This document shows positions 16,103-47,493 of a stretch of DNA of 58,834 bases, in pieces. Numbering within the stretch: the first letter of the stretch is position 1; the number at the start of each line of letters is the position of its first letter. Origin of the DNA: Nostoc sp. DedSLP01 (GTDB lineage: Bacteria > Cyanobacteriota > Cyanobacteriia > Cyanobacteriales > Nostocaceae); assembly GCA_034530875.2 (NCBI GenBank), contig JAVRCJ020000040.1, positions 1 through 58,834 of the forward strand, written 5' to 3'. The position numbers were made by a program, and so were the translations under genes. The notes beneath the pieces are model-generated. The model was not told the DNA's origin. It saw nothing but the letters and a program-made list of their open reading frames with translations, and searched no databases.

Positions 16103-16134
16103 ATTTTTCCCGATCCGATGAAATGGAAGAAAAT

Positions 16135-16770: not shown

Positions 16771-16945
16771 AAGCGGCCTCGAATACTATCGCACCTAGTA
16801 GCGAATCTCTATTTCTCTCTGCTAAAAGGCGCAATTTTTACACAAACAATTGTCAAATGTTATAAAAATACACATTTTGATATTGTTACCTCGCCTCCTT
16901 AAACCCAATCTTAACAACTAACCTTTGTGCCTAAACTCTCCAAGA

Positions 16946-19516: not shown

Positions 19517-19526
19517 CTGCTTGCCC

Positions 19527-24412: not shown

Positions 24413-27400
24413 TTAAGAATTAGCAAGTCGCAAGAATTCTTTACGCAAAGGTGTTGGTGGTGCGAGTGTTAGCACTGAAGGAATGCGCGATGGTTCTGCA
24501 AGGCGTAGTAGTTCGTAACCGATACCAGCAAGTCCGGTCATGAGTCCGGGCGTTTCCACTCCTAATGGCACTCCACACAACCAGCCATGTTGATTGATGC
24601 TTTCGAGGATGATAGCTGCAAGGGAGTTAACTTTTGAATGCAAGTTGGAGTCGTTAAGGGTAAGGCTTGCCAGCAACAACATCTCTAAATTACCCAAATC
24701 CCCATGACATAAACAGTGGTTAAGTCCAAAGCCTTGAGTCAGAGTAGTCTTGAGTACTGTATCAATTTCTAAACGAATTTCAGCATTATCGAGATAGGAT
24801 AGCGATCGCAATCTTCCTAATCCAACTCCTGGCGCACCATGACACCAAGCGGTTATAAAATTAACTGGCTCTTGGTTTCCTGAGAGAACTGTATTTTCCA
24901 ACTCGCGCAAATCTGGCCAATTACCTACTCTGTGACATAAGAGACTTTGTTCGTAAGTAATAGCTTTTAGGGCTACTTTGTAATAACGCTCATCACTCGT
25001 AATTGCTGAGAGTTCCAGTAACGCCGAAGCTATGCCAGCTACCCCGTGAGAAAATCCCGCTAGTGGTTTCTTCCCCATTCTTGGAGCAATCCAACCCATA
25101 CCATTTTCCATTGTTTGGACACGGGCGAGGAGGCGATCGCCACATTGAATTGCTGCTGCAAGTGTACTTTGAGAGGGAGCAATTTGATACAAGTTGAGCA
25201 AACTAGCAATACAACCAGCAGCACCGCCAATAATATCTAATTGTTCATCTTTAGCAATTAAATTTGGGAGCAAATCAACCAGGGATTCAGCTTGTACTAG
25301 CAGTTCTGTTTCATCCCATAAAACTCCTAAATGAGTCAGAGTATAAATGATACCTCCCCAGCCATTAAACCCGCCTATTGCAGTAGTGAATGCTTTGTCA
25401 GTCTCTAGTTGACGCTGCATTGTGCTCAATGCATTTTTTGCCAGAGTAGTGTAGCGATTTTCTTGTGTCACACTACCAAGGTAGGCAAGAAATAAAATCA
25501 CTCCCGATAGACCATCGTAGAGGTCGATTCTCAAAGATGCCAAAGTCCAGTATTTTTCATTGATTAGTGTTAAGCCAAGCCAAGAAACATTTTTATCGTC
25601 TCGCAATGCTAGTGATTCTAAGCGATCGCCTACTGCCAAGGCTGCTTTTATCAGTTGTTCGGGATTAGCATTGTTTCGCGGTTCGCTCAGATGGTAACTA
25701 GGCCAATTTACTTGTGCCTCTCCCATGACCAAAGTTGTCACAGATGCACGAATAAACCACAATTGTTGCTGCAAATCAGCTTCATTAAGTAGTTGAATAC
25801 GTCGATGCACTCCTTGCATACCTGTTTCATCAAAGAAGTCGGCAATTTTTCGATCGCAACTGCTCCAAATAGCACGGGAGTTAGGACGGGTAGTAAACAT
25901 AGGAATGTCACCTTGCCATAAATCGTAGCGTTCGGCCGCAATGATTTTCGCCAGATAAGGTTGTTGCTCGATTCCTACCCATAAACGGTCGAAGTGGCGA
26001 TCGCGTTCTAAAGCATTGCGTAAGAAATCAGGATGGAAGCTTTCTGAAAGCAATAAGCTATAAGTGCGGGTAGATCTAAAAATGACCCGTACTTCGTCCT
26101 CGGCAAAACAAGCTAAAGGCCCATTTTCTGACAACAACTCATCTCGATATTGCAACAGTAGTTGGTAAATAATAGTAAAGCCAGTAATAATTGCCTCGGT
26201 GTAATCCAGTACATTTACTTCAGCATCATTTAAAGTTGGTCGATTCTGACTGCCAAACATAGGCATACGCTCGCGCACAAACCGCATTTCATCAGTGCCA
26301 ATTGCTTCCAAGTGGGAAACGCGATAAGGCGTGAGTTGACCGGCTGTTCCACCTAAACCACTCAAGTCAACTCCTTCTGACTCAGCATTTGCCCAAAGAC
26401 GTTGAGGTAGTAACCCAACTCGTAAAACCGAATAAATAATTTGATTAACTGTAGGCAAGTCTGAGTGCGTAATTTCCATGCCTTCAGTCCGAAGATGAAA
26501 GAGCGACTCTAGGTCAACTAAAACCGGGTGTTCTCCAGCAGCAATTAAATTTTCTAAATGAAAATCTGTAGCTTCTAGAGCATATAGTAATGCTAAGTAT
26601 GCGCCCTGTCGTTCATAAAATCGTTCGATACCGTCAGGCTCCGTGCAGCCTTGAGCGATCGCGAATTCTACCCAGCCATGAGTTTTACGATTTAATATTT
26701 TCAGAATCCGAAATGCTGGATGATTACCACGTTGATTTAGCCAAGTTAGAAGTTGCTGAAAATGTACTTCAATATCAAGCGGTCTAGGCTTATATACTAT
26801 TTGTAAACCAGAGCTAAAATGAGCAATTAGCACCGACCTTCCACCCCGATGAGTATCACCAAGATTACCGTCTATTTTGACTAAGAACCCTGGAGCGTTA
26901 TCTGAACTAAAGATATTAACAATTTCTTTCCAATCTTCACAAAGATGTTGTAGAAATTCCAGGCTAAAATTAACCCATCGGTTAATAGTAATTACTAACT
27001 GACGAGCTAATACAGGATACTCTTGTAATAGAGAAAGCACAATTTCAGGTTGACGTAGATGTTGTAAAAAACTCTGAAATCTCTCTTGTTGGGTATCACC
27101 TGATAATACTCCTTGTAGCCGTGTGACATTAAGTTCTAAAACCATTGTGCGACCCAGCATAGACAAAAGTTGTTCTGGCAGAATGCTAAATAATAAATCT
27201 ACAATGTGATTAGGATTAAAAGGTATATGAAATTGTGTTTTGATGAGTTCTTGAATTTCATTATATAGGCGATCGCATCCTTGATTAATTAAAGGTAGAA
27301 TCGCATCTAAAAAACCAGTTAACTCTGAAGCTGCAAATTCCTCTAAAGATGGCATTGAACGAGAATTAGGATCGGCAAATGCTTGATTTATCTGCGTTAA

Positions 27401-27685
27401 CCAGTCTGGAAGCTCATTGCAACGGTTCTGCACAGTCTCAATAGATTCACCTAAAATTTGGCAAAATTCATCTTCTGTCACACCATCTTGTGCTAAACGC
27501 TGAGAAAAGTAAGAGTTATTACTGAAAGGAGATTGCGATTTCCAACGCTGTATCTGTCGTTTTTGCAGTTCGGGGTTGATATGACTGTTAGTGCGATCGC
27601 TTTGGTTGTTGTGAAGAGATGCAATCCTTTCAGTTAAGGTAGTAGCTTTATACCATGTAGCAGATTGAAAATAAGATTGACTCAT
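24413..27685 (-). CDS. lanM: Class II lanthipeptide synthetase LanM
   Basis: Dehydratase motifs GDTHRGG, YKPR, TDFHLENL and VDLESLF. LanC-like cyclase with GFSHG, AWCHGAPG, CLCHGDLG and GLMTGLAG. Confidence 0.97.
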   Translation of the reverse strand: MSQSYFQSATWYKATTLTERIASLHNNQSDRTNSHINPELQKRQIQRWKSQSPFSNNSYFSQRLAQDGVTEDEFCQILGESIETVQNRCNELPDWLTQINQAFADPNSRSMPSLEEFAASELTGFLDAILPLINQGCDRLYNEIQELIKTQFHIPFNPNHIVDLLFSILPEQLLSMLGRTMVLELNVTRLQGVLSGDTQQERFQSFLQHLRQPEIVLSLLQEYPVLARQLVITINRWVNFSLEFLQHLCEDWKEIVNIFSSDNAPGFLVKIDGNLGDTHRGGRSVLIAHFSSGLQIVYKPRPLDIEVHFQQLLTWLNQRGNHPAFRILKILNRKTHGWVEFAIAQGCTEPDGIERFYERQGAYLALLYALEATDFHLENLIAAGEHPVLVDLESLFHLRTEGMEITHSDLPTVNQIIYSVLRVGLLPQRLWANAESEGVDLSGLGGTAGQLTPYRVSHLEAIGTDEMRFVRERMPMFGSQNRPTLNDAEVNVLDYTEAIITGFTIIYQLLLQYRDELLSENGPLACFAEDEVRVIFRSTRTYSLLLSESFHPDFLRNALERDRHFDRLWVGIEQQPYLAKIIAAERYDLWQGDIPMFTTRPNSRAIWSSCDRKIADFFDETGMQGVHRRIQLLNEADLQQQLWFIRASVTTLVMGEAQVNWPSYHLSEPRNNANPEQLIKAALAVGDRLESLALRDDKNVSWLGLTLINEKYWTLASLRIDLYDGLSGVILFLAYLGSVTQENRYTTLAKNALSTMQRQLETDKAFTTAIGGFNGWGGIIYTLTHLGVLWDETELLVQAESLVDLLPNLIAKDEQLDIIGGAAGCIASLLNLYQIAPSQSTLAAAIQCGDRLLARVQTMENGMGWIAPRMGKKPLAGFSHGVAGIASALLELSAITSDERYYKVALKAITYEQSLLCHRVGNWPDLRELENTVLSGNQEPVNFITAWCHGAPGVGLGRLRSLSYLDNAEIRLEIDTVLKTTLTQGFGLNHCLCHGDLGNLEMLLLASLTLNDSNLHSKVNSLAAIILESINQHGWLCGVPLGVETPGLMTGLAGIGYELLRLAEPSRIPSVLTLAPPTPLRKEFLRLANS

Positions 27686-27731: not shown

Positions 27732-27756
27732 AAGAGGGATTACTACGATCCCTCTT
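27732..27756 (-). terminator. Stem-loop between precursor and lanM
   Basis: AAGAGGGAT / ATCCCTCTT 9-bp stem with a 7-nt loop. Confidence 0.6.
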
Positions 27757-27820: not shown

Positions 27821-28075
27821 TTAAAAAGGACATCGGCAACGCCCAGTTACAGTACTTGGACAACCACACTCAGCAGTAACAGTACAAACACGACCACCTG
27901 AAATATGAAAACTAAATCCTCCTTCAATTCCGTTTATTTCTTCATCCGTCAAATCAACTAGTCCAGCAGGATTGTCTGGAATTTGAGCGCGTTGAGCTTC
28001 AGTTAGGCTGGAGCGATATTCTTCATCTTTCCAAGCGCGAACGACATCGATATCGTTGATATTGATATTACCCAT
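27821..28075 (-). CDS. lanA: Mersacidin/lichenicidin-family class II lanthipeptide precursor
   Basis: Leader DVVRAWKDEEYR..L...P.NPAG..LTDEEINGIEGG. Core FSFHISGGRVCTVTAECGCPSTVTGRCRCPF. AGGAG RBS upstream. Confidence 0.95.
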   Translation of the reverse strand: MGNININDIDVVRAWKDEEYRSSLTEAQRAQIPDNPAGLVDLTDEEINGIEGGFSFHISGGRVCTVTAECGCPSTVTGRCRCPF

Positions 28076-28810: not shown

Positions 28811-29581
28811 CTAATAATGCTGTTCAGTACCCGAAACAGTCCTAGTATTTGTTTGTAGCCAATCTTGAAAAAGTGAGTCTAAGACTTGCTTTCTGATTTC
28901 ACTGAATTCAGCCGGGAAACACTTTTCAACCCTAAGAATGTGATAACCCAATTTTGTATTGATTGGCCCAATTACTTCGCCTGCTTTTGCTTGAGAAATA
29001 GCTTGTGTAATTTCTGGCATCAATTCTGATAGAAAACGCACACCAACAAAGCCACCATTTTGTTTAGATTGTTTACCTTTGGAGTATTCTATTGCTAAAA
29101 CACAGAATGACTCATTTGACTCTTGAATTGCATACATTACTTTTTGAGCTTCTGTGAGGTTGCTGACTAAAATTTGAGATAAGGCTACACGTTGATAATC
29201 TTTACGATTGCTTAGATAATGAGCATCAACAGCATCTCCAAACAGATATTCTTTTAACTTGTTTGTCAGTAGTTCTAATCTAATACCCTGAGACCAATCT
29301 TCTACGCTAATTTGCTGTTGTTGTAGCCATGCTAAGGTTTCAGAAACTCCTAGTAACTTATGTTCGAGCCGAAATTTATCTCCGGCTATTTGCAATTCTT
29401 CATCAGTCACAGTCAAATCAAACTCTTGACAGATATTTAAAATGAACCGATCGCGTGCGGCTAAAACTGCATATTCAGCTATTTTATGAGAATAGCGCAG
29501 GTAGGCAATTACATCTGCATCTGTTGCTTGGGGAATTTCTGGAACAGATGATAATTCTGTGTTTGTCAAAGTTTCTGTCAT
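28811..29581 (-). CDS. PpiC/SurA-type peptidyl-prolyl isomerase-like protein
   Basis: VTDEELQ, F..LA.EYS, GGFVG, GEVIGPI.T.LGYHILRV rotamase motifs. Confidence 0.85.
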   Translation of the reverse strand: MTETLTNTELSSVPEIPQATDADVIAYLRYSHKIAEYAVLAARDRFILNICQEFDLTVTDEELQIAGDKFRLEHKLLGVSETLAWLQQQQISVEDWSQGIRLELLTNKLKEYLFGDAVDAHYLSNRKDYQRVALSQILVSNLTEAQKVMYAIQESNESFCVLAIEYSKGKQSKQNGGFVGVRFLSELMPEITQAISQAKAGEVIGPINTKLGYHILRVEKCFPAEFSEIRKQVLDSLFQDWLQTNTRTVSGTEQHY

Positions 29582-29593
29582 GGTTTTGTTCTC

Positions 29594-30622
29594 CTATGAA
29601 AGATAATTTTGGCGATAAATCAATTTTTCCGATGGAATTTGGTTAATTGACAAATGATTGCGATGTAAATCGCCGTAGAGATTTAGATATTCCACTTCAG
29701 AGGTCGTTAGTTTACCTTGCTGAACGCCAGCGATCGCTGCATCAATTTCTTGGCGGTTAGTCAAACCTGTTAAGCAAACATCGACACAATTTTGCGTCAA
29801 CGAATATCGATATAGATCGGGGACACTAGGTCGCCAACATTTTTCGGGTAAACTACTCGGAACATCTAGGATAGGGCCTGAGTGAGAACCTGTAGATTTG
29901 AAGGTGACGATACCTGGTCGAGAAGAGTCTTGCGCGTGCAATTGATTGAATACCCGACTCTGAGCAGATCGATGCGCGATGTTGTGTCTGACCATGACCA
30001 CATCTAATAAGTCACTATGCAAGCACTGTTGTGCTAAATTAATATCGTGAAAAGAAGCACCGATATAGCGGACGGCTCCCATTTTTTTGAGTCTTTCGGA
30101 AGCGCCAAACATTCTTTCAATGGCGCGTTGATAAACGCTATTGCTACCTCTTAAATCTGGAGAAAGTTGCAAGCAATTCTGTAAAATTGACCGATCGCTA
30201 GAACCAATCCAGCCCCAAAACAACACATCAATATAATCAATTTCTAGCTCTACAAATTGATCTAATAAAGCAGCTAATGCCATTTCTGGACTCTTGATGT
30301 ATGTCACAGTTGCCAACACTACTTTCTCTCGCACTGAAGAGCGACGGCTACACATCTGGCGTAATGCTCCAGACATGGAACTGTAAATATAGTGGTGCAA
30401 GTCGCTAGAGTAGAAAAAGTAGTTAATTCCACGCTCAAAGGCGTAAAGAGTATCTTCACTTGAGATGCTACCACCACCACCCAAACCAAGACAGCTGACT
30501 GTTAAATCAGTACGTCCCAATTTGCGGTAAAACGATAAGTCGGACTCTGGGAAGTTATGTGTTACATGACTAACTTCGCTGGCTGGGGTGACTTGAGGCG
30601 GTGCAAGATCGGTTAGTTTCAT
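29594..30622 (-). CDS. Aldo/keto reductase fold protein (atypical active site)
   Basis: YRKLGRTDLTVSCLGLG, GINYF, DYIDV and G.VRYIGAS motifs. Start overlaps the HopA1-like stop (ATGA). Confidence 0.8.
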   Translation of the reverse strand: MKLTDLAPPQVTPASEVSHVTHNFPESDLSFYRKLGRTDLTVSCLGLGGGGSISSEDTLYAFERGINYFFYSSDLHHYIYSSMSGALRQMCSRRSSVREKVVLATVTYIKSPEMALAALLDQFVELEIDYIDVLFWGWIGSSDRSILQNCLQLSPDLRGSNSVYQRAIERMFGASERLKKMGAVRYIGASFHDINLAQQCLHSDLLDVVMVRHNIAHRSAQSRVFNQLHAQDSSRPGIVTFKSTGSHSGPILDVPSSLPEKCWRPSVPDLYRYSLTQNCVDVCLTGLTNRQEIDAAIAGVQQGKLTTSEVEYLNLYGDLHRNHLSINQIPSEKLIYRQNYLS

Positions 30623-31710
30623 CGTTCTAATGGGGTGTAGATATCTTCAGAGTTGGCATTGAGATAAGAATGTTGCCAGTCAATTCCTAGAAGATAGAAA
30701 TGTTGATGAATAAATTCCATACGGCTTTGGGGTGATTCATCACCTTTTTGGCGAGCTTCTAGTAAGGCATTGGCAACAATTTGGCAACGGTTCATCCCAA
30801 AACTTTCAGACTCAGCAAATTTGAAATCGGGTTCTTCTGCTAAAGCAATTCCAGGGGCGAGAAATTTTGTAAATAGGGGTACTTCTGTGCGGAAATAGGA
30901 TTGCATTTCCGCATAAATATTTCTTAGCACTTGCCAGATTGCTTGATAATTGCTTTTCTCAAAGTAGAGAACACCACTGTCATACCGTCCGTAATCAGAG
31001 GGGTTGTATAACACTTTAAAAGTGAAGGGAATTCCGATTTGGTTTAAGTGCTGTGTCAGGCTTTCCATCAAGGCAACTGCACCTTCAGGTAGCAAGTTAA
31101 AGTAAACTCTGACTGTCTGAGGAGAAGTGTCTGGCCCAGCATCGCCCACAGCCATGTAAAATCCATTTTGAACTAGATTTCGCGGCATCCGAATAGCAAC
31201 TAAGTCGCCGATAGATGCCGATCGCTCGCTAGGTTGTAAATGGCGATCGCGCTCAATATGCAAAGTTAAACCGCCCTTGGTGACTGCGAGGCTCCCATCA
31301 CTTTCTTGGCGCACCAGTAACCAACCTGGGTCAAAGTAACCTTCACCAAGATTACTTTTGTGTAGGCGCTCGTAAAACTCTACGTCTACTCCTAAAAAAG
31401 TATTGTTCTCTAAATTTTGATGTCGTGCTAAGTCAGTCGAACGAGCATCTTTTGCTAACTCAGATCGTAGAGAGCCATTGTAATAAATGCCGTAAAGAAA
31501 ACTTTGCAGTTGGATACTTAAATATTTATTTTGCAAATCCAAAGGTGTTCGCTGAAAACGGGCTATTATCTCAGCAGGAATATCCAAGGGTTTGTAAGCT
31601 GGATGGCTAATACAGAAGTCGGACTTAATTTGAATATTGTTGGCTATGTCTTGCAGAGAATCTAGCACAGAAGTTGATATTGAGCTTTGAGGAGAATCTA
31701 GTAATTGCAT
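30619..31710 (-). CDS. HopA1-like protein (putative phospho-Ser/Thr lyase, LanY-like)
   Basis: GYFDPGW, VRVYFNL, FTFKVLYNP..YGRYDSGVLY, PLFTKFLAPGIALAEEP, ESFGMNRC. Adjacent to an APH kinase. Confidence 0.85.
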   Translation of the reverse strand: MQLLDSPQSSISTSVLDSLQDIANNIQIKSDFCISHPAYKPLDIPAEIIARFQRTPLDLQNKYLSIQLQSFLYGIYYNGSLRSELAKDARSTDLARHQNLENNTFLGVDVEFYERLHKSNLGEGYFDPGWLLVRQESDGSLAVTKGGLTLHIERDRHLQPSERSASIGDLVAIRMPRNLVQNGFYMAVGDAGPDTSPQTVRVYFNLLPEGAVALMESLTQHLNQIGIPFTFKVLYNPSDYGRYDSGVLYFEKSNYQAIWQVLRNIYAEMQSYFRTEVPLFTKFLAPGIALAEEPDFKFAESESFGMNRCQIVANALLEARQKGDESPQSRMEFIHQHFYLLGIDWQHSYLNANSEDIYTPLER

Positions 31711-31735
31711 AATGTTTGAGTGCCGCTAAGAATAT

Positions 31736-32902
31736 TTAAACTAAAGAAGCTTTACCATGAGCGAGTTGTGATTCCGCAACTCCAAAAACTGTTGAGATTG
31801 ATTGTTCTGGACGACACAACAAACTTTTGGCAACTTGAAGCATACAGATACCAATATTTCCAAAAGATTTTTGATGCTGAATCATTGCTTGAATTTGTTG
31901 AATTATGGCAAGTCCAGAAAACTGCACAACTCGTTTGAGAAAATCAGGGCGATGCTCTAAAATTTCTGGAAAGTTTGCCAAATATGCTTGAGTTAAAGCA
32001 GCAATGGAAGGCTGAAGTTGTTCGAGTGGTGTCATCGCTAACCGCAAAGATTCTTCGACATCAATAGATTTACTCACCACTAAACTATTTAGCCAAAGTT
32101 GTAAATAACTGGCGATGAGCATTCCTAAGTCAAATGCAGGATCGCCCCAAGCGCCTCGTTCCCAGTCAATAAGTCTAATTGCACTATTAGTTGTCAGGAC
32201 TTCTTGCCAATTGTTGTGCAGGAGGATATTGTTCAGCTTGAGGTCATTGTGTGTGAGACAGCAAGGTACGGATTTAGCGATCAGTTGTGCGATCGCTTTT
32301 CCCAGGCTGTCATATCTTTGATAGAGAGCAAAGAATTTCAATCCATCTGCGGGAACCCGACCGAAAACTTCAGGAGTAATCTTGTCTAGCCCAAGATTAA
32401 AGTTAAGAACTTGTTCAATAGATGTGTCATCAGATTGCTGAGCGAAAAATTCTTGGTAGTCGTGACGTTGGAAAGTCGCTTGATGGATGGTAGCTAAAGT
32501 AGTACCAATTGCAGATGCGATCGCAGTTGGAAAAATATTCTCCTTGATATAAAAATCAGCTAGATCGCAATAGTCATTGAGATAATTAAAAACAATAATC
32601 GAATGCTCTACATCAAAATGTAAAGCCTCTGAAAGCATTGAACAAATATGACTGAGTTCATGAGTTTGTTGAAAAAACTCATGAATTCGCCATTCACTCA
32701 AAAATTCACCCGCAGTTTTCCCTTCTTGATTGTGACGTTCCTGTTTAACAAGGAGTTTACGTTCATCGTCTAAACTCAGTAATAAGTTGAAGTTTTTCGC
32801 AGCTTTTGGCTCGACTTGTTTCAAATCCTGCTCTTGCAGAAAAAATAACTCTTGATTAAATAAGTACTGGAAAACGTTTTGAGAACTTAATAAAAATGTC
32901 AC
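31736..32902 (-). CDS. Aminoglycoside-phosphotransferase-family kinase (LanK-like)
   Basis: KNFNL, LLVKQE, CLTHNDLKLNNILL, LIDWE..WGDPAFDLG. GTG start at 32902 after a G-rich RBS. Confidence 0.88.
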   Translation of the reverse strand: MTFLLSSQNVFQYLFNQELFFLQEQDLKQVEPKAAKNFNLLLSLDDERKLLVKQERHNQEGKTAGEFLSEWRIHEFFQQTHELSHICSMLSEALHFDVEHSIIVFNYLNDYCDLADFYIKENIFPTAIASAIGTTLATIHQATFQRHDYQEFFAQQSDDTSIEQVLNFNLGLDKITPEVFGRVPADGLKFFALYQRYDSLGKAIAQLIAKSVPCCLTHNDLKLNNILLHNNWQEVLTTNSAIRLIDWERGAWGDPAFDLGMLIASYLQLWLNSLVVSKSIDVEESLRLAMTPLEQLQPSIAALTQAYLANFPEILEHRPDFLKRVVQFSGLAIIQQIQAMIQHQKSFGNIGICMLQVAKSLLCRPEQSISTVFGVAESQLAHGKASLV

Positions 32903-33010
32903 AACTAAACCCCCATAAAATGTATTACACAAGGCTGGCTTATTGCATAGATGATTTTTTTGAAACTTGATTAGCTTTAATTTGCTAGGATGCTTTATGC
33001 AAATTCGTCC

Positions 33011-33060
33011 TAACGCACCAAAAATCTGGGATGGTGTGTTAGTTTGTGGCATAACACACC
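33011..33060. repeat. REP-like palindromic repeat between the precursor array and the kinase
   Basis: TAACGCACC...GGTGTGTTA...TAACACACC. Confidence 0.55.
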
Positions 33061-33085
33061 ATAACTCTGTAAATTCAGTTAATCC

Positions 33086-33325
33086 TTAATTGCGCTTAAA
33101 CAAGCGTCCAACACCACCAATTGCTCCAGCTATACCAATAGCACATTGCTGTGAGGAACGAGCGCCAATATATCCCAGCCTAGCTGCTGATAAAATTAGC
33201 GCTGGTGTGAAACCACCGTAGATATTTTCAAATTCATTGTCACCAAAATCGTCCATATAGCCTTCAGAATCACAAAATAAATCAGAACCCTTAGGACGCA
33301 AATCGGAAATATTGATACTAGCCAT
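33086..33325 (-). CDS. Double-glycine RiPP precursor P5
   Basis: Leader MASINISDLRP.GSDLF.DSEGY...ENIYGG. Core FTPALILSAARLGYIGARSSQQCAIGIAGAIGGVGRLFKRN. Confidence 0.88.
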   Translation of the reverse strand: MASINISDLRPKGSDLFCDSEGYMDDFGDNEFENIYGGFTPALILSAARLGYIGARSSQQCAIGIAGAIGGVGRLFKRN

Positions 33326-33385
33326 TGTTTTGCCTCTTGAATGAAATTAATTGAAATGTAATTAGTAGGTTGGATTTTTTGAGTT

Positions 33386-33447
33386 TCAAAGTCTTCTCGA
33401 AGAAATTGTGTAATTATCATTAAAATCTTTATTCAAGAAGACTTTGA
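33386..33447. promoter_or_regulatory. Long intergenic hairpin between precursors P4 and P5
   Basis: TCAAAGTCTTCT / AGAAGACTTTGA perfect 12-bp stem, extendable with mismatches. Confidence 0.55.
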
Positions 33448-33459
33448 TGGGTTTTGTAT

Positions 33460-33687
33460 TTATAGCCTAGCTATTATGCTCTTGTTGTAGTCATGAATTT
33501 TCCTTGTCGCCATAGAAAATCCATACGTCAACATAAAGACCCCAATTGAGGCACATACAGGAGTAGATAAAGCACCTCCACGCATCAAACCAATTTCATC
33601 ATCATTGATTTCATTGAGATAACTCTCTTTATCTAACAGGAGGTCAAATCCTGTTGCAGAGAGATTGTTAATTGCAATGTTTGCCAT
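33460..33687 (-). CDS. Double-glycine RiPP precursor P4
   Basis: Leader MANIAINNL..TGFDL..DKESYLNEI.DDEI..MRGG. Core ALSTPVCASIGVFMLTYGFSMATRKIHDYNKSIIARL. Confidence 0.88.
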   Translation of the reverse strand: MANIAINNLSATGFDLLLDKESYLNEINDDEIGLMRGGALSTPVCASIGVFMLTYGFSMATRKIHDYNKSIIARL

Positions 33688-33718
33688 ACTAGGTTTCTCC
33701 AGGTAACTATTAACTTAG

Positions 33719-33958
33719 TTAACGACCAACAATCCAGCCAGAAACAGCACCACTTACAGCTACTGCTCCTGAAACTGCATATTTGGCACACTTGGCTGAT
33801 GAAATACGTATTGAGTAGCCAACAGCCCATATAGCAAATGGAATACCACCATAAACTTGATTAGATTCGCTGTAACCGAGTTCATCCATATAGCCTTCAG
33901 AATCGGAAAATAGCTCCAAACCAGTAGGACGCAAATCGGAAATATTAATGTTAGCCAT
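33719..33958 (-). CDS. Double-glycine RiPP precursor P3
   Basis: True start at 33958 (MANINISDLRPTG, AGGAG RBS). Core after VYGG: IPFAIWAVGYSIRISSAKCAKYAVSGAVAVSGAVSGWIVGR. Confidence 0.88.
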   Translation of the reverse strand: MANINISDLRPTGLELFSDSEGYMDELGYSESNQVYGGIPFAIWAVGYSIRISSAKCAKYAVSGAVAVSGAVSGWIVGR

Positions 33959-34002
33959 TGTTGTTCTCCTTGAATTTTTACAACGTTTACCAAGCCAAAT
34001 TT

Positions 34003-34221
34003 TTAACCTATTTTTTTGAGCTGCGCAGTTAGTCTCCAAAAAGGTGGATATATAGGTCTTGGTGTAGGAATAGGACGGCAATAAGGACTAAACCACGGAC
34101 GAGAAATTAATCCACCCTGAATGTTGAGTTCTTCTTCTGATAAATCGTTGATGAATTGTTCAGAATCAGAAAACAGATCGTAACCAGCAGGATGCAGATT
34201 TGAAATTGCAATATTAGCCAT
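34003..34221 (-). CDS. Double-glycine RiPP precursor P2 (Pro-rich core)
   Basis: True start at 34221 (MANIAISNLHPAG, AGGAG RBS). Core after IQGG: LISRPWFSPYCRPIPTPRPIYPPFWRLTAQLKKIG. Confidence 0.88.
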   Translation of the reverse strand: MANIAISNLHPAGYDLFSDSEQFINDLSEEELNIQGGLISRPWFSPYCRPIPTPRPIYPPFWRLTAQLKKIG

Positions 34222-34259
34222 ACTAGCTCTCCTATTGATTGAGGTTACTTTTACTCTTC

Positions 34260-34484
34260 CTATGGTTTTATTCTTGAAGTAGTAGCAGCCCATACTGTAA
34301 CAGCAATACCAGGAGAACCGAAACCAGCACTAGTTACTATACTCAGTACACATCTCCATTTAGACCATTTTCCACCTTGGATATTGCCAACTTCACTGTC
34401 TATTAAATCGTTCATATAGCTTTCGGAATCTTTGAATAGCTCAGAGCCAGTAGGATTCAAATCAGAAATTTCAATGTTAGCCAT
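34260..34484 (-). CDS. Double-glycine RiPP precursor P1
   Basis: Leader MANIEISDLNPTGSELFKDSESYMNDL...NIQGG. Core KWSKWRCVLSIVTSAGFGSPGIAVTVWAATTSRIKP. Confidence 0.88.
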   Translation of the reverse strand: MANIEISDLNPTGSELFKDSESYMNDLIDSEVGNIQGGKWSKWRCVLSIVTSAGFGSPGIAVTVWAATTSRIKP

Positions 34485-34919
34485 GAGATTTTACCTTTTA
34501 GTAAATTTTTGTGCTAGATGTTATCTGCACATTTCCTTATGTCTCTTCAATCTTCTGATAATAATTTGAGGATTTCAAGGTTTTTAAGCTGGCTGTTTGT
34601 ACATAATTAAAGGACTTATGTTTCGTGCTTAAATACTTTCAGACTTAATGATTTCTTGGCAATTAATATAATAAAAGGTTGCGTTAAGGCAATTTAAAAC
34701 GAATGTTATCTATTTATCGGTAGAGTCCGCTTATTTTGGTTTGGTACACTACAAATGCCAGAAAAGCCAGATTTCTAACCACAAGCAAAAATATTATGTA
34801 CTTTTGTAACAAGTTGTGGAATTCCCGGAGTTTTGATTCAGAGAAGTAACAGAGAGTTTCAGGAATTATCCAGATTAATTTCTATCTGGGCATTGCAAGT
34901 TATACCAGGAGGAATTGCT

Positions 34920-35477
34920 GTGAACAAGCAAGGTCTATATTTAACAACGTTTCAACGTAAGCTTTTGCTCAAGAGTTTAGAAACAGATTTACGTCCAGAA
35001 TACCGCCGTCGGATTGAAATCATGCTGTTGGCAGATGCAGGTCAATCTCAGACTCAAATATGCGAAGCTTTAGGATGCTCTCAGGAGACAGCACGGCACT
35101 GGATTACTATGGCACAAACAGGCCAGGCTCATCATTGGAATGACCGCCTGATGGGTCGTCCTAAAGCTGTGAATGAGCAATATCTCGCTCGCTTACAAGA
35201 ACTAGCAAATCATAGCCCGCGTGAGTATGGTTATGCATTTGAACGCTGGACAGGACAATGGTTAAGCAAGCATTTGGCAAAAGAGTTTGGCATTAAAGTT
35301 AGTGCTTGCCACGTTAACCGTCTGCTGAAGGAAATGGGACTTTCGACTCGACAGACACGCAAAACAGAGCAAAAAACTGATAACACCAAAAATTCTCGGA
35401 TTACGATTGGCAATCTGTTACCCAATCCAGAGCCTAATTTTCGATGGTCGTTGAATTTCGTTAAAACCAGTAATTAA
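34920..35477 (+). CDS. Helix-turn-helix protein related to the DNA-binding half of IS630 transposases (putative regulator)
   Basis: AGGAGG plus GTG start at 34920. RRIEIMLL...SQTQICEALGCSQETARHW, GRPK, WT..WL..HL..EFGI.VS..HV.RLL..MG. No DDE domain. Confidence 0.75.
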   Translation: MNKQGLYLTTFQRKLLLKSLETDLRPEYRRRIEIMLLADAGQSQTQICEALGCSQETARHWITMAQTGQAHHWNDRLMGRPKAVNEQYLARLQELANHSPREYGYAFERWTGQWLSKHLAKEFGIKVSACHVNRLLKEMGLSTRQTRKTEQKTDNTKNSRITIGNLLPNPEPNFRWSLNFVKTSN

Positions 35478-35489
35478 TTTTTTCAAATC

Positions 35490-38400
35490 ATGGTTCAGAA
35501 CAAATCAGAATTTTCTCTTCAACAGCTTGCCCAAACTCTGGGTCAGACTCTTACACCACAAGAATTTTCAGACTGCATTAAAAAAATTGAAATTATCCAG
35601 CCAAGTGCAGGCAAACTTTTTTGGCAGACAACAGACGCAAACATAGGCATTTATCTAATTTTGGCAGGTAAAGCCAGATTGCTCGATCGCAGCGATAATT
35701 TAATTGCTTCTATCGGTATAGGAACATCCTTCGCCCAGTTAACGCTATTTCCCGAAGAACAATTTCAACCTTACGCTGTTCGGGCTTCGGTAAATCTCAA
35801 AGTTGGTTATATTCCTGGGGAATGTTTGCGATCGCTCATTCGCAAGTATCCCACCATTGGGCAGCATCTTCACAACCAAGCTGTACTTTGGGATTTATTA
35901 CTGTTATGTCGCCAAAATCCTGCACTGAATAATGTTACTTACGAAGGTGTAACGCAAATTCAACCACTTCTAGAACAGCACAATCTCCAAATTAACAAAC
36001 TGCCATCTTCTTTACTCAAAGACCAGCAACTCTGGATATTACGGCGTGGCGAACTATTGCACACATCAGGACTAAAACTAACTGCTAGCAATATTTACAC
36101 CTTAACTCAGTTACCTAAAGACCGTGGTTGGCAAGTAACTCAAAGTTCGCAACTATACAGCCTCAGCAGTTTACATTGGCAAACTGCATTGCAACACATA
36201 CCACAACTGGCTGAACTCGATGCTAACAACCATCCCGTTGCAGTCTCTCAGCCTGCGATGTTGCCCCAATTGACGGTTGAGCCAAAAAACCAGTTAAAGA
36301 AGAAAATTAGTAAAGCTTACTTCCCTAGCCCAACCGTAAAAATCGGTCATTTATGGCAACGTATTACTCGCCGCTATCCCTTCTTTGAACAACAAAGTGC
36401 GTCTGATTGTGGCGCGGCTTGCTTGGTGATGGTTGGTCGCTACTGGGGTAAGCATTTTAGCATCAATCGGCTGCGAGATATTGCTAACGTCGATCGGGAT
36501 GGGTCATCGCTGCGAGGTTTAGCAGCAGCAGCAGAAAGCATCGGCTTTTCAACTCGACCTGTCAAAGCCAGCCTGGATAAACTTGCACAGCAAAGCCTTC
36601 CGGCTATTGTGCATTGGGAAGGCAAACATTATATCGTTGTCTATGAAGTCAAAGGCGATCGCATTATCGTTGGAGATCCTGGTATTGGTCAGCGTACCCT
36701 CTCACATTCAGAATTTCAAGCAGGTTGGACTGGCTATGCTTTGTTACTCCAACCGACAGCCCTACTGCGAGAAGCCAAAGAAGCCAGCACTCCTTTTTGG
36801 CAGTTTTTTGAATTAACTAAACCTCACTGGCTGGTATTGTTAGAAGTTCTGATTGCTTCTATTCTGATTCAAATCTTTGGCCTAGTCACACCACTATTTA
36901 CACAACTATTACTAGACCGAGTGGTTGTGCAGCGTAGTAACTTAACATTAACGGCTGTCGGTATAGGTTTAATTATCTTTAGTCTGTTTCGAGTTGCTAT
37001 CACTGGACTGCGGCAATATCTTCTCGACCACACAGCTAACCGAGTAGATTTAGCCTTGATTGTGGGATTTATTACCCATACCTTTCGCTTACCTCTAAAC
37101 TATTTTGAGTCTCGTTATGTGGGCGATATCATTTCTCGCGTGCAAGAAAACCGCAAAATTCAACGTTTCTTAACTGGTGAAGCACTATCTATCTTTTTGG
37201 ATTTACTTACAGTATTTGTCTATGTTGGATTGATGTTTTGGTATAGCTGGAAAATGGCATTAATGACCTTAGTGATTGTGCCACCATTTGTCTTATTGGC
37301 ACTGATAGCTACACCTTTTTTACAACGTGTTTCCCGCGAAATTTTTGGCGCACATAACGAAGAAACTGGGTATTTAATTCAATCTTTGACGGGTATCCGC
37401 ACGATTAAATCGATGGCAGTTGAGCAAACTGTCCGCTGGCAATGGGAAGAACTTTTTGGTAAGTCAGTAAAAAAGACTTTTTCGGGGCAAGTCATTGGCA
37501 ACACACTGCAAATATTTAGCTCTGGTATTGAAGCTGTAGTTACCGCAGCATTATTATGGTTTGGTGCGTGGCAAGTGATTCAAAATGAACTCACCATTGG
37601 GCAACTGATAGCTTTTAATATGTTGCTCAGTAATGTGATTAATCCTTTTCAAAGGCTGATTTTGTTGTGGAATGAACTACAAGAAGTACTGATTGCTGTT
37701 GAACGAATTAATGATGTGATTGATGCCGAACCAGAAGAAGATTTACAACATCAACATTATCAATCATTACCAGCAATTCGCGGTTATATTCGCTTTGATA
37801 AAGTTACTTTTCGCTATCATCCAGAAAGTGAGATAAATACCTTAGAAAATATCAGTTTTGAAGTCCAACCAGGACAAACAATTGCACTTGTCGGACGTAG
37901 TGGTTCGGGAAAAACAACTATTTCTAAGCTGATATTAGGATTGTATCTGCCTATAGAAGGGAAGATTTTAATTGATAGCTATGATGTCACTAGTTTATCG
38001 CTGCGATCGCTCCGTCAGCAAATTGGTGTAGTCGATCAAGATACCTTTTTGTTTGGTAGTACAATTCGCGAAAACATTTCTTTAGGCCATCCCGAAGCTT
38101 CTTTAGAAGAAGTTATAGAAGCCGCTAAACAAGCAGGCGCACATCAGTTTATTAAAGAACTACCGATGGGCTACGAAACCCTAATTGGAGAAGGGGGAGG
38201 AACGCTATCTGGTGGACAAAGACAAAGATTAGCGATCGCCCGTGCCCTTGTCGGAAATCCCCGACTGCTAATTTTAGATGAAGCTACCAGCAGCCTTGAC
38301 GCTGAATCTGAACGCATTATTCAGACGAACCTCAACACAATTCTTCAAGATAGAACAACTGTGGTGATTGCACATCGCCTCTCAACAATACGCAATGCAG

Positions 38401-38519
38401 ACAGAATTTTAGTACTAGATAAAGGCTTGTTAGTTGAAAGTGGCACTCACGATGAATTAATGGCTAAACGCGGTCACTATTTCTACCTAAATCAACAACA
38501 ACTGACTCTAGCAATTTAA
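35490..38519 (+). CDS. Peptidase-containing ABC transporter (cNMP-like N-terminus, C39 peptidase, ABC membrane, NBD)
   Basis: C39 motifs QQSASDCGAACL and HWEGKHYIVV..GDP. Walker A GRSGSGKT, LSGGQRQR, ILDEATSSLD. Confidence 0.97.
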   Translation: MVQNKSEFSLQQLAQTLGQTLTPQEFSDCIKKIEIIQPSAGKLFWQTTDANIGIYLILAGKARLLDRSDNLIASIGIGTSFAQLTLFPEEQFQPYAVRASVNLKVGYIPGECLRSLIRKYPTIGQHLHNQAVLWDLLLLCRQNPALNNVTYEGVTQIQPLLEQHNLQINKLPSSLLKDQQLWILRRGELLHTSGLKLTASNIYTLTQLPKDRGWQVTQSSQLYSLSSLHWQTALQHIPQLAELDANNHPVAVSQPAMLPQLTVEPKNQLKKKISKAYFPSPTVKIGHLWQRITRRYPFFEQQSASDCGAACLVMVGRYWGKHFSINRLRDIANVDRDGSSLRGLAAAAESIGFSTRPVKASLDKLAQQSLPAIVHWEGKHYIVVYEVKGDRIIVGDPGIGQRTLSHSEFQAGWTGYALLLQPTALLREAKEASTPFWQFFELTKPHWLVLLEVLIASILIQIFGLVTPLFTQLLLDRVVVQRSNLTLTAVGIGLIIFSLFRVAITGLRQYLLDHTANRVDLALIVGFITHTFRLPLNYFESRYVGDIISRVQENRKIQRFLTGEALSIFLDLLTVFVYVGLMFWYSWKMALMTLVIVPPFVLLALIATPFLQRVSREIFGAHNEETGYLIQSLTGIRTIKSMAVEQTVRWQWEELFGKSVKKTFSGQVIGNTLQIFSSGIEAVVTAALLWFGAWQVIQNELTIGQLIAFNMLLSNVINPFQRLILLWNELQEVLIAVERINDVIDAEPEEDLQHQHYQSLPAIRGYIRFDKVTFRYHPESEINTLENISFEVQPGQTIALVGRSGSGKTTISKLILGLYLPIEGKILIDSYDVTSLSLRSLRQQIGVVDQDTFLFGSTIRENISLGHPEASLEEVIEAAKQAGAHQFIKELPMGYETLIGEGGGTLSGGQRQRLAIARALVGNPRLLILDEATSSLDAESERIIQTNLNTILQDRTTVVIAHRLSTIRNADRILVLDKGLLVESGTHDELMAKRGHYFYLNQQQLTLAI

Positions 38520-38541
38520 ATTAATAATTAGAGAAATAACC

Positions 38542-39924
38542 ATGACAGACGAATTTATTCCACAAAAGCAATTTAGCCACAATGGTCACTACCATAGTCA
38601 TCAACTAGATTTAAAAACTCAATCAAAATCTTTTACACCTATCAGCGAAGATTGGTCTTCTTTAACTAAAGAGTTAATTGATACATTACCACGAGTGTGG
38701 ACACGCGGATTGCTGTATTGGCTAGTAATATTTGCGGCGATCGTTTTACCTTGGGCGATGCTATCTCAAGTAGACGAAACAGGTACTGCTAGAGGAAGGC
38801 TGGAACCTCAAGGTAAAACTCTGAGATTGGATGCACCTGTTACGGGTAAAGTTATATCTATCAAAGTTAAAGAAGGGCAAACTGTCAAAGCTGGAGAAAC
38901 TTTATTGGAGTTGGAATCAGATTTAACCCGCACTGAACTACAACAAACTCAGGCAAAACTTGAGGGTCAACAAAATCGTATAAATCAACTTCAGTTACTC
39001 AAAAACCAACTAACAATGTCTTTACGCACTCAGCAATTACAAAACCAAGCCCAAGAGACTGAACAACTTGCTCAACTCGCTCAAATTAAACAACGTTTAA
39101 ATTCAAGTAAACAAGTATATACTTTGGAAAAAGGCCGCTTGAACTTAGCTAATAACGAAATCCAACGTTATCGATATCTTTCGCAAAAAGGCGCTATTTC
39201 TAAAAGTAAATTAGAAGAAGTAGAAGGCGCTATGTTTGAACGCCAGAGACTTTTAGAACAAGCACAATCAGAGATTCAACAAGCCACAACCGAAATTACT
39301 AAACAACAAAGCACAAATCAACGTCTTAGTCGTGCAGGTGAACTAGCACTTTTAGAAGGTCAAAAACAAATAAAAGAACTCCAGTCTCAAGTTATAGATG
39401 TGCTATCAGAAATTGGCCAAACTCAAAAGCAAATTCAGGCTTTGCAATTTCAACTACAACAGCAAACTCTTCGTACTCCTATTGATGGCACAATTTTTCA
39501 GTTATCTATAAATAATGCCGGAACTGTTTTGCAACCAGGACAAATGATTACTCAAATTGCGCCTAAAGATGTACCTTTGATATTTAGAGCCGAGATGCCT
39601 AGTCAAGAAAGTGGTTTTTTACTTGTAGGAATGCCAGTAAAACTGAAATTTGATGCTTATCCTTTTCAGGATTATGGAGTGGTAGAAGGCAAACTTCGCT
39701 GGATTTCACCAGATTCTAAAGTTGTCGAAACACCTCAAGGCAAGTTAGAAAATTTTGAACTAGAAATTGAAATATCAAAAGCCGCTATTCAAACTAAAGA
39801 AAAAAGGATAGCTTTAACGCCAGGTCAAACAGCAACTGCTGAAGTAATTGTACGGAAGCGCCGTTTGATTGACTTTGTACTAGATCCATTTAAGAAGTTA
39901 CAAAAAAGCGGTTTAGAACTTTAG
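38542..39924 (+). CDS. HlyD-family membrane fusion protein
   Basis: Single TM; GRLEP, VKEGQTVKAGE, coiled coil, TPIDG, KFDAYPFQDYG, LTPGQTATAEV. Confidence 0.95.
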   Translation: MTDEFIPQKQFSHNGHYHSHQLDLKTQSKSFTPISEDWSSLTKELIDTLPRVWTRGLLYWLVIFAAIVLPWAMLSQVDETGTARGRLEPQGKTLRLDAPVTGKVISIKVKEGQTVKAGETLLELESDLTRTELQQTQAKLEGQQNRINQLQLLKNQLTMSLRTQQLQNQAQETEQLAQLAQIKQRLNSSKQVYTLEKGRLNLANNEIQRYRYLSQKGAISKSKLEEVEGAMFERQRLLEQAQSEIQQATTEITKQQSTNQRLSRAGELALLEGQKQIKELQSQVIDVLSEIGQTQKQIQALQFQLQQQTLRTPIDGTIFQLSINNAGTVLQPGQMITQIAPKDVPLIFRAEMPSQESGFLLVGMPVKLKFDAYPFQDYGVVEGKLRWISPDSKVVETPQGKLENFELEIEISKAAIQTKEKRIALTPGQTATAEVIVRKRRLIDFVLDPFKKLQKSGLEL

Positions 39925-39948
39925 AAATTATTCATAAGGAGTTTAACT

Positions 39949-40704
39949 ATGTTAGATTTACTTGTTGTCTACAAAGATGAAATTATTCACCAAATCAAAC
40001 TTTCTTGCCAACTTCCAAATATTGCTGAGAGTATCATTACTCGCAAAATTATAATAAATACAGCACAAGAACTAGGCATAAAAGTTGAAACAAAAGAACT
40101 TCAAGAAGCCGCAGATAGCTTGCGGGTTTTCAACAGGCTTGAGAGCGCTGAAACAACTTGGTCTTGGTTACAAAAACAAAGTCTTTCTTTAGATAATTTT
40201 GAAGAGTTAGTTTATTATAACGTCATCTCTTCAAAGTTAGCCGAGTATTTATTTGCTGACAAAGTTGAACAGCACTTTGTTGAAAATCAATTAGATTATA
40301 CTCAAGTCATCATGTATGAAGTTGTCTTTGATGATTTAGACTTGGCAATGGAACTTTTTTATGCGATTCAAGAAGATGAGATTAGTTTTTCTGAAGTTGC
40401 CCATCAATATATTCAAGATGATGAGTTACGCCGTAGTGGAGGATATAAGGGAATACTAAACCGTACAGATTTAAAATCAGAAATATCAGCAAAGGTATTT
40501 GCAGCAACTCCACCCCAGCTTCTTATACCAATTGTCACTTATAAAGGAGCGCATTTGATTAATGTTGAAGAAATAATCAAACCCGAATTGAATCAAACTT
40601 TACATTTAACAATTATTTCGCAGCTATTTTCAGAATGGCTGAAGCAGCAATTAGAGCAAGTTCAAGTCGAATACTCAGATATTGGGTTTAACCTTGGCGA
40701 TTAG
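39949..40704 (+). CDS. PpiC/SurA-type peptidyl-prolyl isomerase-like protein
   Basis: ELQEAAD, SFSEVAHQY, GGYKG, PI.T.KG.HLI.V motifs. Last gene of the transporter operon. Confidence 0.85.
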   Translation: MLDLLVVYKDEIIHQIKLSCQLPNIAESIITRKIIINTAQELGIKVETKELQEAADSLRVFNRLESAETTWSWLQKQSLSLDNFEELVYYNVISSKLAEYLFADKVEQHFVENQLDYTQVIMYEVVFDDLDLAMELFYAIQEDEISFSEVAHQYIQDDELRRSGGYKGILNRTDLKSEISAKVFAATPPQLLIPIVTYKGAHLINVEEIIKPELNQTLHLTIISQLFSEWLKQQLEQVQVEYSDIGFNLGD

Positions 40705-47363: not shown

Positions 47364-47493
47364 TCCTGAATACTAAATTGTTAATCACATCTTGGATACT
47401 CAAACAACGAGCGATCGCAAACATGAAACGCCGATAACATCAGATTTAAAACTGGACTGGCTAAAACTATTATTTTGACGATCCGTATTAATC

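Follow-up and report, generated by a model that had tools for sequence, protein, structure and literature searches.

Class V lanthipeptides, a group of peptides made on ribosomes and then modified post-translationally (RiPPs), are so far known only from actinobacteria according to the text of a 2025 review (PMC12328550). Related cyanobacterial genes have nevertheless been catalogued. The text of Eyles et al. 2021 (PMC8153245) defines Family 1A with 570 peptides and 183 cyanobacterial clusters, tabulates aldo/keto reductase (PF00248) and peptidyl-prolyl isomerase (PPIase; rotamase) as co-occurring domains in columns of its dataset 1, states that the cores lack conserved Ser/Thr/Cys and leaves the products open. 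Cyanobacterial "type-B" class V precursors are noted as uncharacterised in the text of Liang et al. 2022 (PMC9486802), and distant cyanobacterial homologues are mentioned in that of Kloosterman et al. (PMC7794033). Here, we describe a member of this family on contig JAVRCJ020000040.1 of Nostoc sp. DedSLP01 (GCA_034530875.2; genome 8.57 Mb), the whole 58,834 nt of which are called the window. Its minus strand carries, in this order, five precursor genes with Gly-Gly (GG) leaders, the kinase LanK, the HopA1-like lyase LanY, a gene for a protein with the aldo-keto reductase (AKR) fold and a PPIase-like gene (28811-34484). We give an even chance to the reading that this is a cyanobacterial class V-type cluster in which LanK and LanY dehydrate the precursors, the rings close without a cyclase and the AKR-fold protein reduces the leftover dehydro residues. 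The AKR-fold protein is the new element of the cassette, and the initial annotation of this DNA did not single it out as such.

The cassette resembles Family 1A in its leader, GG site, several diverse precursors, HopA1/phosphotransferase pair and confinement to cyanobacteria; the window is a member of that family and nothing different in kind. The orthologous precursors of Nostoc minutum and the alternating cores of Nostoc linckia (see below) are rows of electronic supplementary information (ESI) dataset 2 of Eyles et al., the former in network 1. The window precursors are probably also the type-B precursors of Liang et al., a fit made by figure legend and text and not by leader alignment. Family 1A is described in the text of Eyles et al. 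as having no conserved Ser/Thr/Cys, whereas a strong Cys-anchored motif was found here; the same text gives the AKR no role and reports no product, although its figures (Fig. 7, S26 and S28), or Fig. S6 of Liang et al., may already depict or discuss the AKR gene. Our literature searches, mostly of open-access sources, turned up neither a characterised family member nor a RiPP enzyme with the AKR fold nor a ribosomal gramicidin mimic of the kind considered below, and the "aldo" text matches in three papers were "retro-aldol". The system had been called plausibly uncharacterised, which holds in that no product was found in print, but the cluster type was already catalogued (Eyles, Liang).

Class Va (cacaoidin, lexapeptide, pristinin A3, triantimycins and rosins) shares with the cassette the split LanK/LanY pair, the lack of LanC and the (S/T)2X2C motif. 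In the Eyles dataset, the ring region of core 5 is common to Streptomyces and Amycolatopsis class Va precursors and core 3 resembles the cores of Nonomuraea HopA1-linked precursors; the ring motif of core 5 is also found in 13 rows of the class Va table of Ding et al. Those Streptomyces precursors are probably of the lexapeptide type, judging by a 38-residue core with Ser at 28, which matches D-Ala28. Unlike class Va, the cassette has no LanD, LanX, C-terminal Cys/aminovinyl-methyl-cysteine (AviMeCys), N-methyltransferase or F420-dependent LanJ(C), the last being common but not universal in class Va clusters; it has a GG leader and a C39 exporter where class Va has an M16 peptidase, and AKR-fold and PPIase-like proteins instead. 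The class Vb peptide mSmoA is likewise made by LanK/LanY without aminovinyl-cysteine (AviCys), but it needs a standalone LanC, which the cassette does not have. By their defining tests the cassette belongs to neither class Va nor class Vb. It has the general make-up of class V, namely LanK, LanY and precursors with Ser/Thr and Cys placed for (methyl)lanthionine ((Me)Lan), and its proposed workings are those of class Va without the AviCys module.

Predicted split dehydratase and probable ring-forming cores

LanK scored 91.5 bits (E=5.2e-26) with the LxmK model NF038156, which is under the equivalog cut-off of 315, and is thus a distant LanK. Its start is probably the GTG at 32902 and not the ATG at 33052; the resulting 388 aa match the length of most LanK homologues. 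The kinase has its catalytic residues K53, E70, H218-x-D220...N225 and D246. LanY has R201, K232, R242 and Y249 with a spacing of 31/10/7 as compared with 32/10/7 for R187/K219/R229/Y236 of CaoY, a match that rests on spacing and conservation and not on direct alignment of CaoY. The first three CaoY residues (R187, K219, R229) matter by mutagenesis in the text of Liang et al. (PMC9486802). The sole PDB sequence match of LanY was 9dk1_B, titled "Lyase" (E=2.4e-8). Across 82 (LanK) and 85 (LanY) aligned rows, the catalytic residues were kept in 95% or more, with the exception of kinase D220, which was changed in five rows (four second-copy kinases and one D-to-E). From the intact residues and the precedent of CaoK/CaoY, it is very likely that LanK would phosphorylate the cores and LanY would eliminate to give dehydroalanine (Dha) and dehydrobutyrine (Dhb).

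A LanY-anchored scan of GTDB genomes returned 306 related stretches, the best 80 of which were kept, and the nearest LanY relatives of the window were Nostocales. Among these 80 loci, the kinase was found in 80, leader-matching precursors in 77 (1-6 each), the AKR-fold gene in 59 and PPIase 1 in 57. Among the recurrent unlabelled neighbours, of which 22 of 33 cluster representatives were run in Pfam, there was neither a flavoprotein decarboxylase nor a standalone LanC or an F420-type reductase. In the DedSLP01 genome, the two HFCD flavoproteins (PF02441) sit on contigs C6 and C19 and none on this contig, the six F420-type PF00296 genes all lie elsewhere than on this contig, and the sole LanC-like match is a domain inside the neighbouring LanM, with no standalone LanC in the genome. 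The cassette has one kinase only and hence no LanX. The AKR-fold protein and LanY have no NCBIfam model, and the five precursors have one neither in NCBIfam nor in Pfam.

The five precursors have a common leader of 37-38 aa ending in GG, and each core has exactly one Cys, which is never C-terminal. Every core carries a positive charge (+3 to +6), and four of the five are hydrophobic on balance. The (S/T)2X2C motif is present in cores 3, 4 and 5, and three were reached in 1/20000 shuffles; some relatives of precursor 1 hold the full motif at the corresponding place. The similarity between cores 3 and 5 was matched or exceeded in 3/1000 shuffles. Precursor 2 has a near-identical orthologue in locus L001 (Nostoc minutum), present in ESI dataset 2. 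The motif was followed in a set of 161 loci (126 distinct places), where 418 precursors gave 293 unique cores after those without a clear GG/GA site, with X or with a core below 10 aa had been dropped. It occurred in 69 of the 110 Cys-containing unique cores (shuffle mean 4.7, maximum 14) and in 36 of 62 after clustering at ~40% identity (shuffle mean 3.0, maximum 8), and only 4/293 cores had a C-terminal Cys. Among 79 cores with a single Cys, Ser/Thr was found at both -4 and -3 in 53, at -4 only in 13, at -3 only in 8 and at neither in 5. Ser/Thr was more frequent in AKR loci (0.215, and 0.155 otherwise), but given the kinship of the loci this difference does not count as support here.

In the texts of Ding et al. 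(PMC11186320) and Xie et al. (PMC12291118), LanK/LanY suffice to form a (Me)Lan ring at this motif; knockouts of LanD/LanX leave the ring intact there and both proteins serve only the C-terminal AviMeCys. The absence of LanC, LanD and LanX thus fits the needs of the cores, since the motif self-cyclises and no Cys is C-terminal. In the proposed second step, the single Cys would attack a dehydro residue lying three or four positions upstream. The (Dhx)2-X-X-Cys arrangement of cores 3, 4 and 5 would likely template the ring unaided, by analogy with triantimycin and rosin. No AviCys would form because there is no C-terminal Cys, LanD or LanX. A gene of the precursor-4 type comes after one of the precursor-3 type in L001, L012, L015 and L020, and precursors 3 and 4 may possibly form a two-component pair. 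Tandem A-B-A-B precursor pairs in L027, L063, L072, L118, L122 and L131 also suggest two-component peptides.

These results bear on several statements of the initial annotation. Its five tandem open reading frames (ORFs) of 72-79 aa with a common leader agree with the lengths of 74, 72, 79, 75 and 79 aa, and its kinase, HopA1-like, AKR and PPIase genes downstream on the same strand agree with the coordinates and Pfam matches (Table 1). Its assignment of the kinase and HopA1-like protein as a class V-type split dehydratase is supported, as a predicted function, by the intact catalytic residues and the family matches, and the absence of LanD (no PF02441 on the contig) and of any core ending in Cys was also found. 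It had named kinase/HopA1 pairs that commonly occur without adjacent GG-leader peptides as a refutation; precursors were seen at 77/80 loci. The cores had been called unrelated: they are diverse, but each has one Cys, three of five share (S/T)2X2C and cores 3 and 5 are related. The term library-type is half right, since the cores form recurring families, some common to actinobacterial class Va, in which the ring motif is kept. The lack of a cyclase stands for a standalone LanC but not for the LanM with a LanC-like domain at 24413-27685, and it was missed that the self-cyclising motif accounts for the absent cyclase. The cassette itself is real, but the C39 export operon (34833-40704) and the LanM with its own precursor had been left out.

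Additional LanK/LanY pairs were also noticed. A second pair occurs in L032:2244-4479, L037:9561-12174 and L068/L069:10971-13346, the kinase of which has no catalytic Asp and the lyase no equivalents of R201 and K232; the AKR is missing from these loci, and (S/T)2X2C from their Cys-containing cores. It is a candidate pseudo-enzyme cyclase, like the kinase-fold LanX. The DedSLP01 genome has a third, apparently intact pair (L082, contig C24, ~12560-15445).

An AKR-fold protein and its candidate role

The model of the AKR-fold protein (predicted local distance difference test score 92.6) is a (beta/alpha)8 AKR barrel. The best structural match had Z of 24.3 and a root mean square deviation of 2.8 Å over 256 aligned residues at 20% identity; the top 29 VIA rows were nearly all AKR-superfamily chains, Foldseek agreed, and the protein was at most 22% identical to any solved chain listed. 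The invariant residues H76, Y108, H192, R212, N214 and H217 lie at the C-terminal ends of the barrel strands, and five of them (Y108, H192, R212, N214 and H217) recur in 85-93 of the 94 rows, close and distant, that were aligned. Among the positions that we take to be classical AKR cofactor contacts, G46/G48 (the G-x-G loop), S190 and the aromatic F241 are kept. ESM Atlas matches were generic "aldo/keto reductase" or hypothetical clusters from Cyanobacteriota, Chloroflexota and Myxococcota. A housekeeping role of the gene was rejected, as it was present in 9/301 sampled genomes of the phylum and 0/5 of the same genus.

The genomic company of this protein was surveyed with two AKR-anchored scans. 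The close scan gave 173 relatives, the best 80 of which were kept and 77 of these were new loci; LanY was found in 75 of the new loci and a LanM without LanK/LanY in 2, and the remaining 3 of the best 80 also had LanY. One of the two LanM-side loci (L159) uses an NHLP-like precursor, so that the AKR is not bound to one leader type. The scan of a distant subgroup, whose profile is 32% identical to the close one (hhalign E=1.2e-48), gave 105 relatives, and a dehydratase was sought within 7 kb of the best 80. LanB was found at 28, LanK with LanY at 29 (16 of these also with a LanC-like gene) and neither at 23 in the available sequence; where the locus was at least 14 kb long, a dehydratase was seen in 35/43. 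A LanC-like gene adjoins the AKR family in these 16 LanK/LanY loci and in at least 7 LanB loci. A quick tree covering 96 rows (window, 15 cyanobacterial loci and all 80 distant loci) requires 23 changes of dehydratase label, with the label "none" behind many of them, and the partner type switches repeatedly. The AKR and PPIase 1 were found to be coupled, since among 73 loci with enough downstream DNA both were present in 52, both absent in 19 and discordant in 2.

Distant AKR-family domains are fused to other domains in L173:834-3254, P0185, P0240, P0204 and P0226, the partners being LanY, JmjC/cupin, ABC ATPase and HEAT repeats. The two LanY-AKR fusions (P0185 and the ORF in L173) are 63% identical, and each is a single metagenomic sequence. 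JmjC/cupin genes also adjoin the myxobacterial LanK/LanY/AKR loci. L165 and L166 combine the AKR family with arrays of short GG-leader precursors, of which 3 and 9 were seen, and with a LanC-like gene; L166 has LanB in addition.

LanB, LanM and LanK/LanY, which the family adjoins in several phyla, share Dha/Dhb, and the family thus most likely acts on these residues. Three LanJ classes are described in the text of PMC11519912, namely LanJ(A) (Zn/NADPH), LanJ(B) (flavin) and LanJ(C) (F420H2), and none has the AKR fold. The AKR-fold protein is like a LanJ in its proposed role and in its habit of joining different dehydratase classes, but it belongs to no known LanJ fold (Zn-ADH, flavin, F420), and the role is proposed from context. 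In the third step, on the basis of gene context and with chances evenly balanced, the AKR-fold protein, perhaps helped by PPIase 1, would give hydride to the remaining Dha/Dhb to form D-Ala/D-aminobutyrate (D-Abu) and would so stand in for LanJ(C), the F420-dependent enzyme of actinobacterial class V clusters. AKR1D1 is a precedent for an AKR that reduces C=C, and no usable open-access source on such AKRs was found.

Eight sister loci with LanK, LanY, AKR and PPIase (L081, L135, L136, L138, L143, L144, L146 and L152) have cores in which Ser/Thr stands at every second position, alternating with hydrophobic residues. L081 belongs to DedSLP01 itself (contig C31, ~228-6175), and its alternating precursors (~3296-4597) are free of Cys. 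In 24 of the 26 unique cores, all the Ser/Thr (5-10 residues) keep one alternating register and the other 2 deviate by one; some cores end in four Trp at alternate positions. The alternation matches the L/D residue pattern of gramicidin A as printed in PMC8689412. The likeness to the non-ribosomal gramicidin A is confined to these sister clusters (e.g. L081 and L152), which have Ser/Thr where its D-residues fall and Trp at every second C-terminal position; their products would in contrast come from ribosomes and gain D-Ala/D-Abu through dehydration and reduction. The sister clusters also hold PPIases and an exporter, with no epimerase or known LanJ identified among their genes, and a CAAX-protease-like gene, possibly for immunity, follows in seven Nostoc loci. 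Matching CAAX/PPIase/HlyD/C39 genes were seen at the start of contig C2 (L083), which may continue C31; no overlap was found. Somewhat short of an even chance, the AKR-fold family may be a fourth LanJ class (D-Ala/D-Abu) that serves class I, II and V dehydratases and spans cyanobacteria, myxobacteria, acidobacteria and planctomycetes, with the sister clusters making L/D-alternating gramicidin mimics and the cyanobacterial clusters making up a third class V subclass without LanC, LanD and LanX.

Several observations weigh against reduction and the class V-type reading around it. The catalytic tetrad of AKRs is Asp-Tyr-Lys-His. By profile alignment to solved AKRs, such as those of the superfamily represented by L-galactose dehydrogenase and AKR11C1 with which the fold is shared, these positions hold F70, L75, V106 and G137, each invariant in 55/55 close homologues; the loss was read by alignment, and a spatial stand-in such as Y80, Y108 or H76 is possible. 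M210, F191 and A296, presumably also classical cofactor contacts, are changed. Because several contacts are changed, NAD(P)H binding is uncertain and the redox role not secure. No dehydratase was seen at 23/80 distant AKR loci, including 8/43 full-length ones. Window cores 1 and 2 have a single upstream Ser and not the full (S/T)2X2C, and many family products cannot be lanthipeptides because 183/293 unique cores have no Cys. No recognisable precursor, AKR or exporter lies close to the LanK/LanY pair on contig C24, which may act in trans. Most of the alternating cores belong to a single Nostoc clade, and such cores could be beta-strand amphiphiles, the five window cores do not alternate, and i,i+2 Ser/Thr periodicity was not enriched across the family (lag-2 z=-0.9). 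Finally, each survey kept the best 80 matches, whose loci are mutually related, and the locus counts are thus not independent.

The lost tetrad and altered cofactor contacts, together with the invariant H192, R212, N214, H217 and Y108, would also suit non-redox chemistry on Dha/Dhb at a His/Tyr/Arg site, for instance water being added back stereospecifically (a net epimerisation of Ser/Thr) or some other nucleophile being added, and such chemistry equally fits the company of three dehydratase types. We consider it unlikely, as the G-x-G loop, S190 and the aromatic residue at 241 are retained, and Dha/Dhb of class V clusters are known to be reduced, while no other LanJ is present in these clusters. 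Less likely still, the protein may be non-catalytic, acting as a scaffold, as a chaperone with PPIase 1 or in self-protection from reactive dehydropeptides, with plain dehydro/lanthionine products and alternating cores that are beta-strand amphiphiles. The presence of SmbA (6gtm), an AKR-fold chain described as a ppGpp binder, among the fold matches and the absence of the AKR at 21/80 loci that keep LanK/LanY are in its favour; polar/non-polar alternation also yields beta-sheets in the text of PMC8689412, and Synechococcus GG-motif proteins are reported to act in biofilm formation (PMC4997328). A scaffold is, however, not expected to move among unrelated LanB, LanM and LanK/LanY systems, and the conserved residues gather at the usual active-site face of the barrel. 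It is improbable that the AKR-fold protein is the missing cyclase or that the neighbouring LanM, 1.1 kb away and with its cyclase motifs, closes the rings. The (S/T)2X2C motif is indeed commoner with the AKR (42/57 AKR places with a Cys core and 2/9 without the AKR), but cyclisation by the AKR is disfavoured because only Cys-free cores occur at 40/97 AKR places and the family co-occurs with LanC; LanM is matched at 8/80 loci, and the precursor of the window LanM has a different leader. Slightly less probable again is a LanO-type ketoreductase converting an N-terminal pyruvyl/2-oxobutyryl group to a hydroxy acid after leader removal, ordinary AKR chemistry with TaaRed and ElxO as precedents and Ser/Thr-Pro exposable by trimming near the N-terminus of 74/293 cores, because the carbonyl-reducing tetrad is gone, no core in the window or at 69/97 AKR places starts with Ser/Thr, and the exporter would be expected to remove the leader as the peptide leaves the cytoplasm.

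Export genes and neighbouring loci

The features of the cassette and its surroundings are given in Table 1. The export operon (34833-40704) is divergent from the cassette. Homologues of its first gene, encoding the helix-turn-helix protein, occur at 32/80 LanY loci, and many loci keep the gene ahead of the C39 transporter. An intact IS630 transposase was rejected for this gene, since it scored 83.6 bits against a cut-off of 100 and covered only the first 126 of 299 positions, and its product is likely a domesticated regulator. An ABC transporter match was found at 54/80 LanY loci, a few of them only 25-34% identical. The transporter is predicted from its domains to cut at GG and export. In this fourth step, the exported peptides, cationic, mostly hydrophobic and probably membrane-active, would include some two-component pairs, and we regard the step as fairly likely. 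PpiC/SurA-like protein 1 is likely a chaperone or substrate carrier. Cyanobacterial bacteriocin groups I/II (Wang et al. 2011, PMC3140520) have the same long-type C39, HlyD and SurA export module, and the searchable text of that paper makes no mention of the kinase or of an aldo-keto reductase. A promoter scan of the region was at chance level (21 found and 23.9 expected), and no RNA holder is listed for it.

Table 1. Positions and properties of the cassette, export and neighbouring genes in the window
Feature	Position	Strand	Properties
Precursor 1	34260..34484	-	74 aa; GG leader of 38 aa and cationic core of 36 aa with 9 Ser/Thr; single Cys in S-x-x-x-C
Precursor 2	34003..34221	-	72 aa; core rich in Pro/Arg with 4 Ser/Thr; single Cys in S-P-x-C
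Precursor 3	33719..33958	-	79 aa; hydrophobic core with 6 Ser and an internal SSAKC ring motif
Precursor 4	33460..33687	-	75 aa; STPVC motif close to core N-terminus
Precursor 5	33086..33325	-	79 aa; internal SSQQC motif
LanK, APH-family Ser/Thr kinase	31736..32902	-	388 aa from GTG; ORF reaches ATG 33052; PF01636 E=1.2e-9
LanY, HopA1-like phospho-Ser/Thr lyase	30619..31710	-	363 aa; PF17914 E=4.5e-63
AKR-fold protein, candidate Dha/Dhb reductase	29594..30622	-	342 aa; PF00248 E=1.4e-8
PpiC/SurA-like protein 1 (PPIase 1)	28811..29581	-	256 aa; PF00639 E=4.8e-15
Helix-turn-helix protein	34833..35477	+	IS630-like helix-turn-helix region only; first gene of export operon
C39-peptidase ABC transporter	35490..38519	+	long type; PF03412, PF00664, PF00005, weak PF00027 (cNMP-binding)
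HlyD adaptor	38542..39924	+	TIGR01843, 209.2 bits, at cut-off
PpiC/SurA-like protein 2	39949..40704	+	PF00639; export operon; 29% identical to protein 1
Mersacidin/lichenicidin-type LanA	27821..28075	-	TIGR03898 E=1.4e-19; Cys-rich core
Class II LanM	24413..27685	-	TIGR03897, 1046 bits; LanC-like domain; ~1.1 kb beyond cassette

The LanM was rejected as a part of the cassette, as it is matched at 8/80 LanY loci (its LanA homologue at 6/80) and its own precursor has a different leader. LanM and LanA are probably a separate pathway, which has no transporter of its own nearby and may share the cassette exporter. The N-terminal part of LanA is similar to the beginning of the class V leaders, a hint of a common export or chaperone signal. 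A terminator-like hairpin (27732-27756) lies between the LanM precursor and lanM. Elsewhere in the window, two filamentous-haemagglutinin (TPS) proteins occur with CHAT-TPR, sigma-like, DUF1822, CHASE2 and DUF928 genes (9208-24119), and similar TPS/CHAT genes recur beside related cassettes. Genes for an O-methyltransferase, a SnoaL-like protein and an FAD-dependent oxidoreductase follow each other on the minus strand (46356-49567), possibly a small separate secondary-metabolite unit.

Among the related loci, 33 Asn-rich and Ser/Thr-rich cores with repeated Asn-Thr motifs were seen at eleven (L030, L036, L042, L044, L045, L053, L054, L056, L061, L067 and L155) and are possibly another structural class; M16 peptidase pairs occur in L042, L045 and L057. 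A Nif11-class radical SAM maturase (TIGR04103) often adjoins the cassettes, as does an unannotated 146-aa protein (~34 loci, e.g. L076:3125-4384 and L053:11510-11947); some of these sites have an extra precursor alongside. L025, from a record labelled Rhizobium, holds a cyanobacterial-type cassette 61-86% identical to that of the window and is probably a mis-binned contig.

Meaning for the family

The window holds an intact member of a catalogued cyanobacterial class V-type family for which no product was found in print. With 306 LanY-related stretches in the GTDB scan, hundreds of cyanobacterial clusters await a product, and this analysis offers testable chemistry for them. Radical-SAM epimerases are the existing ribosomal route to beta-helical channel peptides. 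If the AKR-fold protein does reduce Dha and Dhb, at up to ten alternate positions and without F420, it would be an E. coli-compatible tool for placing D-amino acids in ribosomal peptides, and the sister clusters would be a second ribosomal route to such channel peptides. If it acts otherwise, it would still be a RiPP tailoring protein of wide occurrence, whose AKR site has been rebuilt and for which no function was found in print. The tetrad-less AKR family and the alternating sister cores together offer a good chance of new enzymology.

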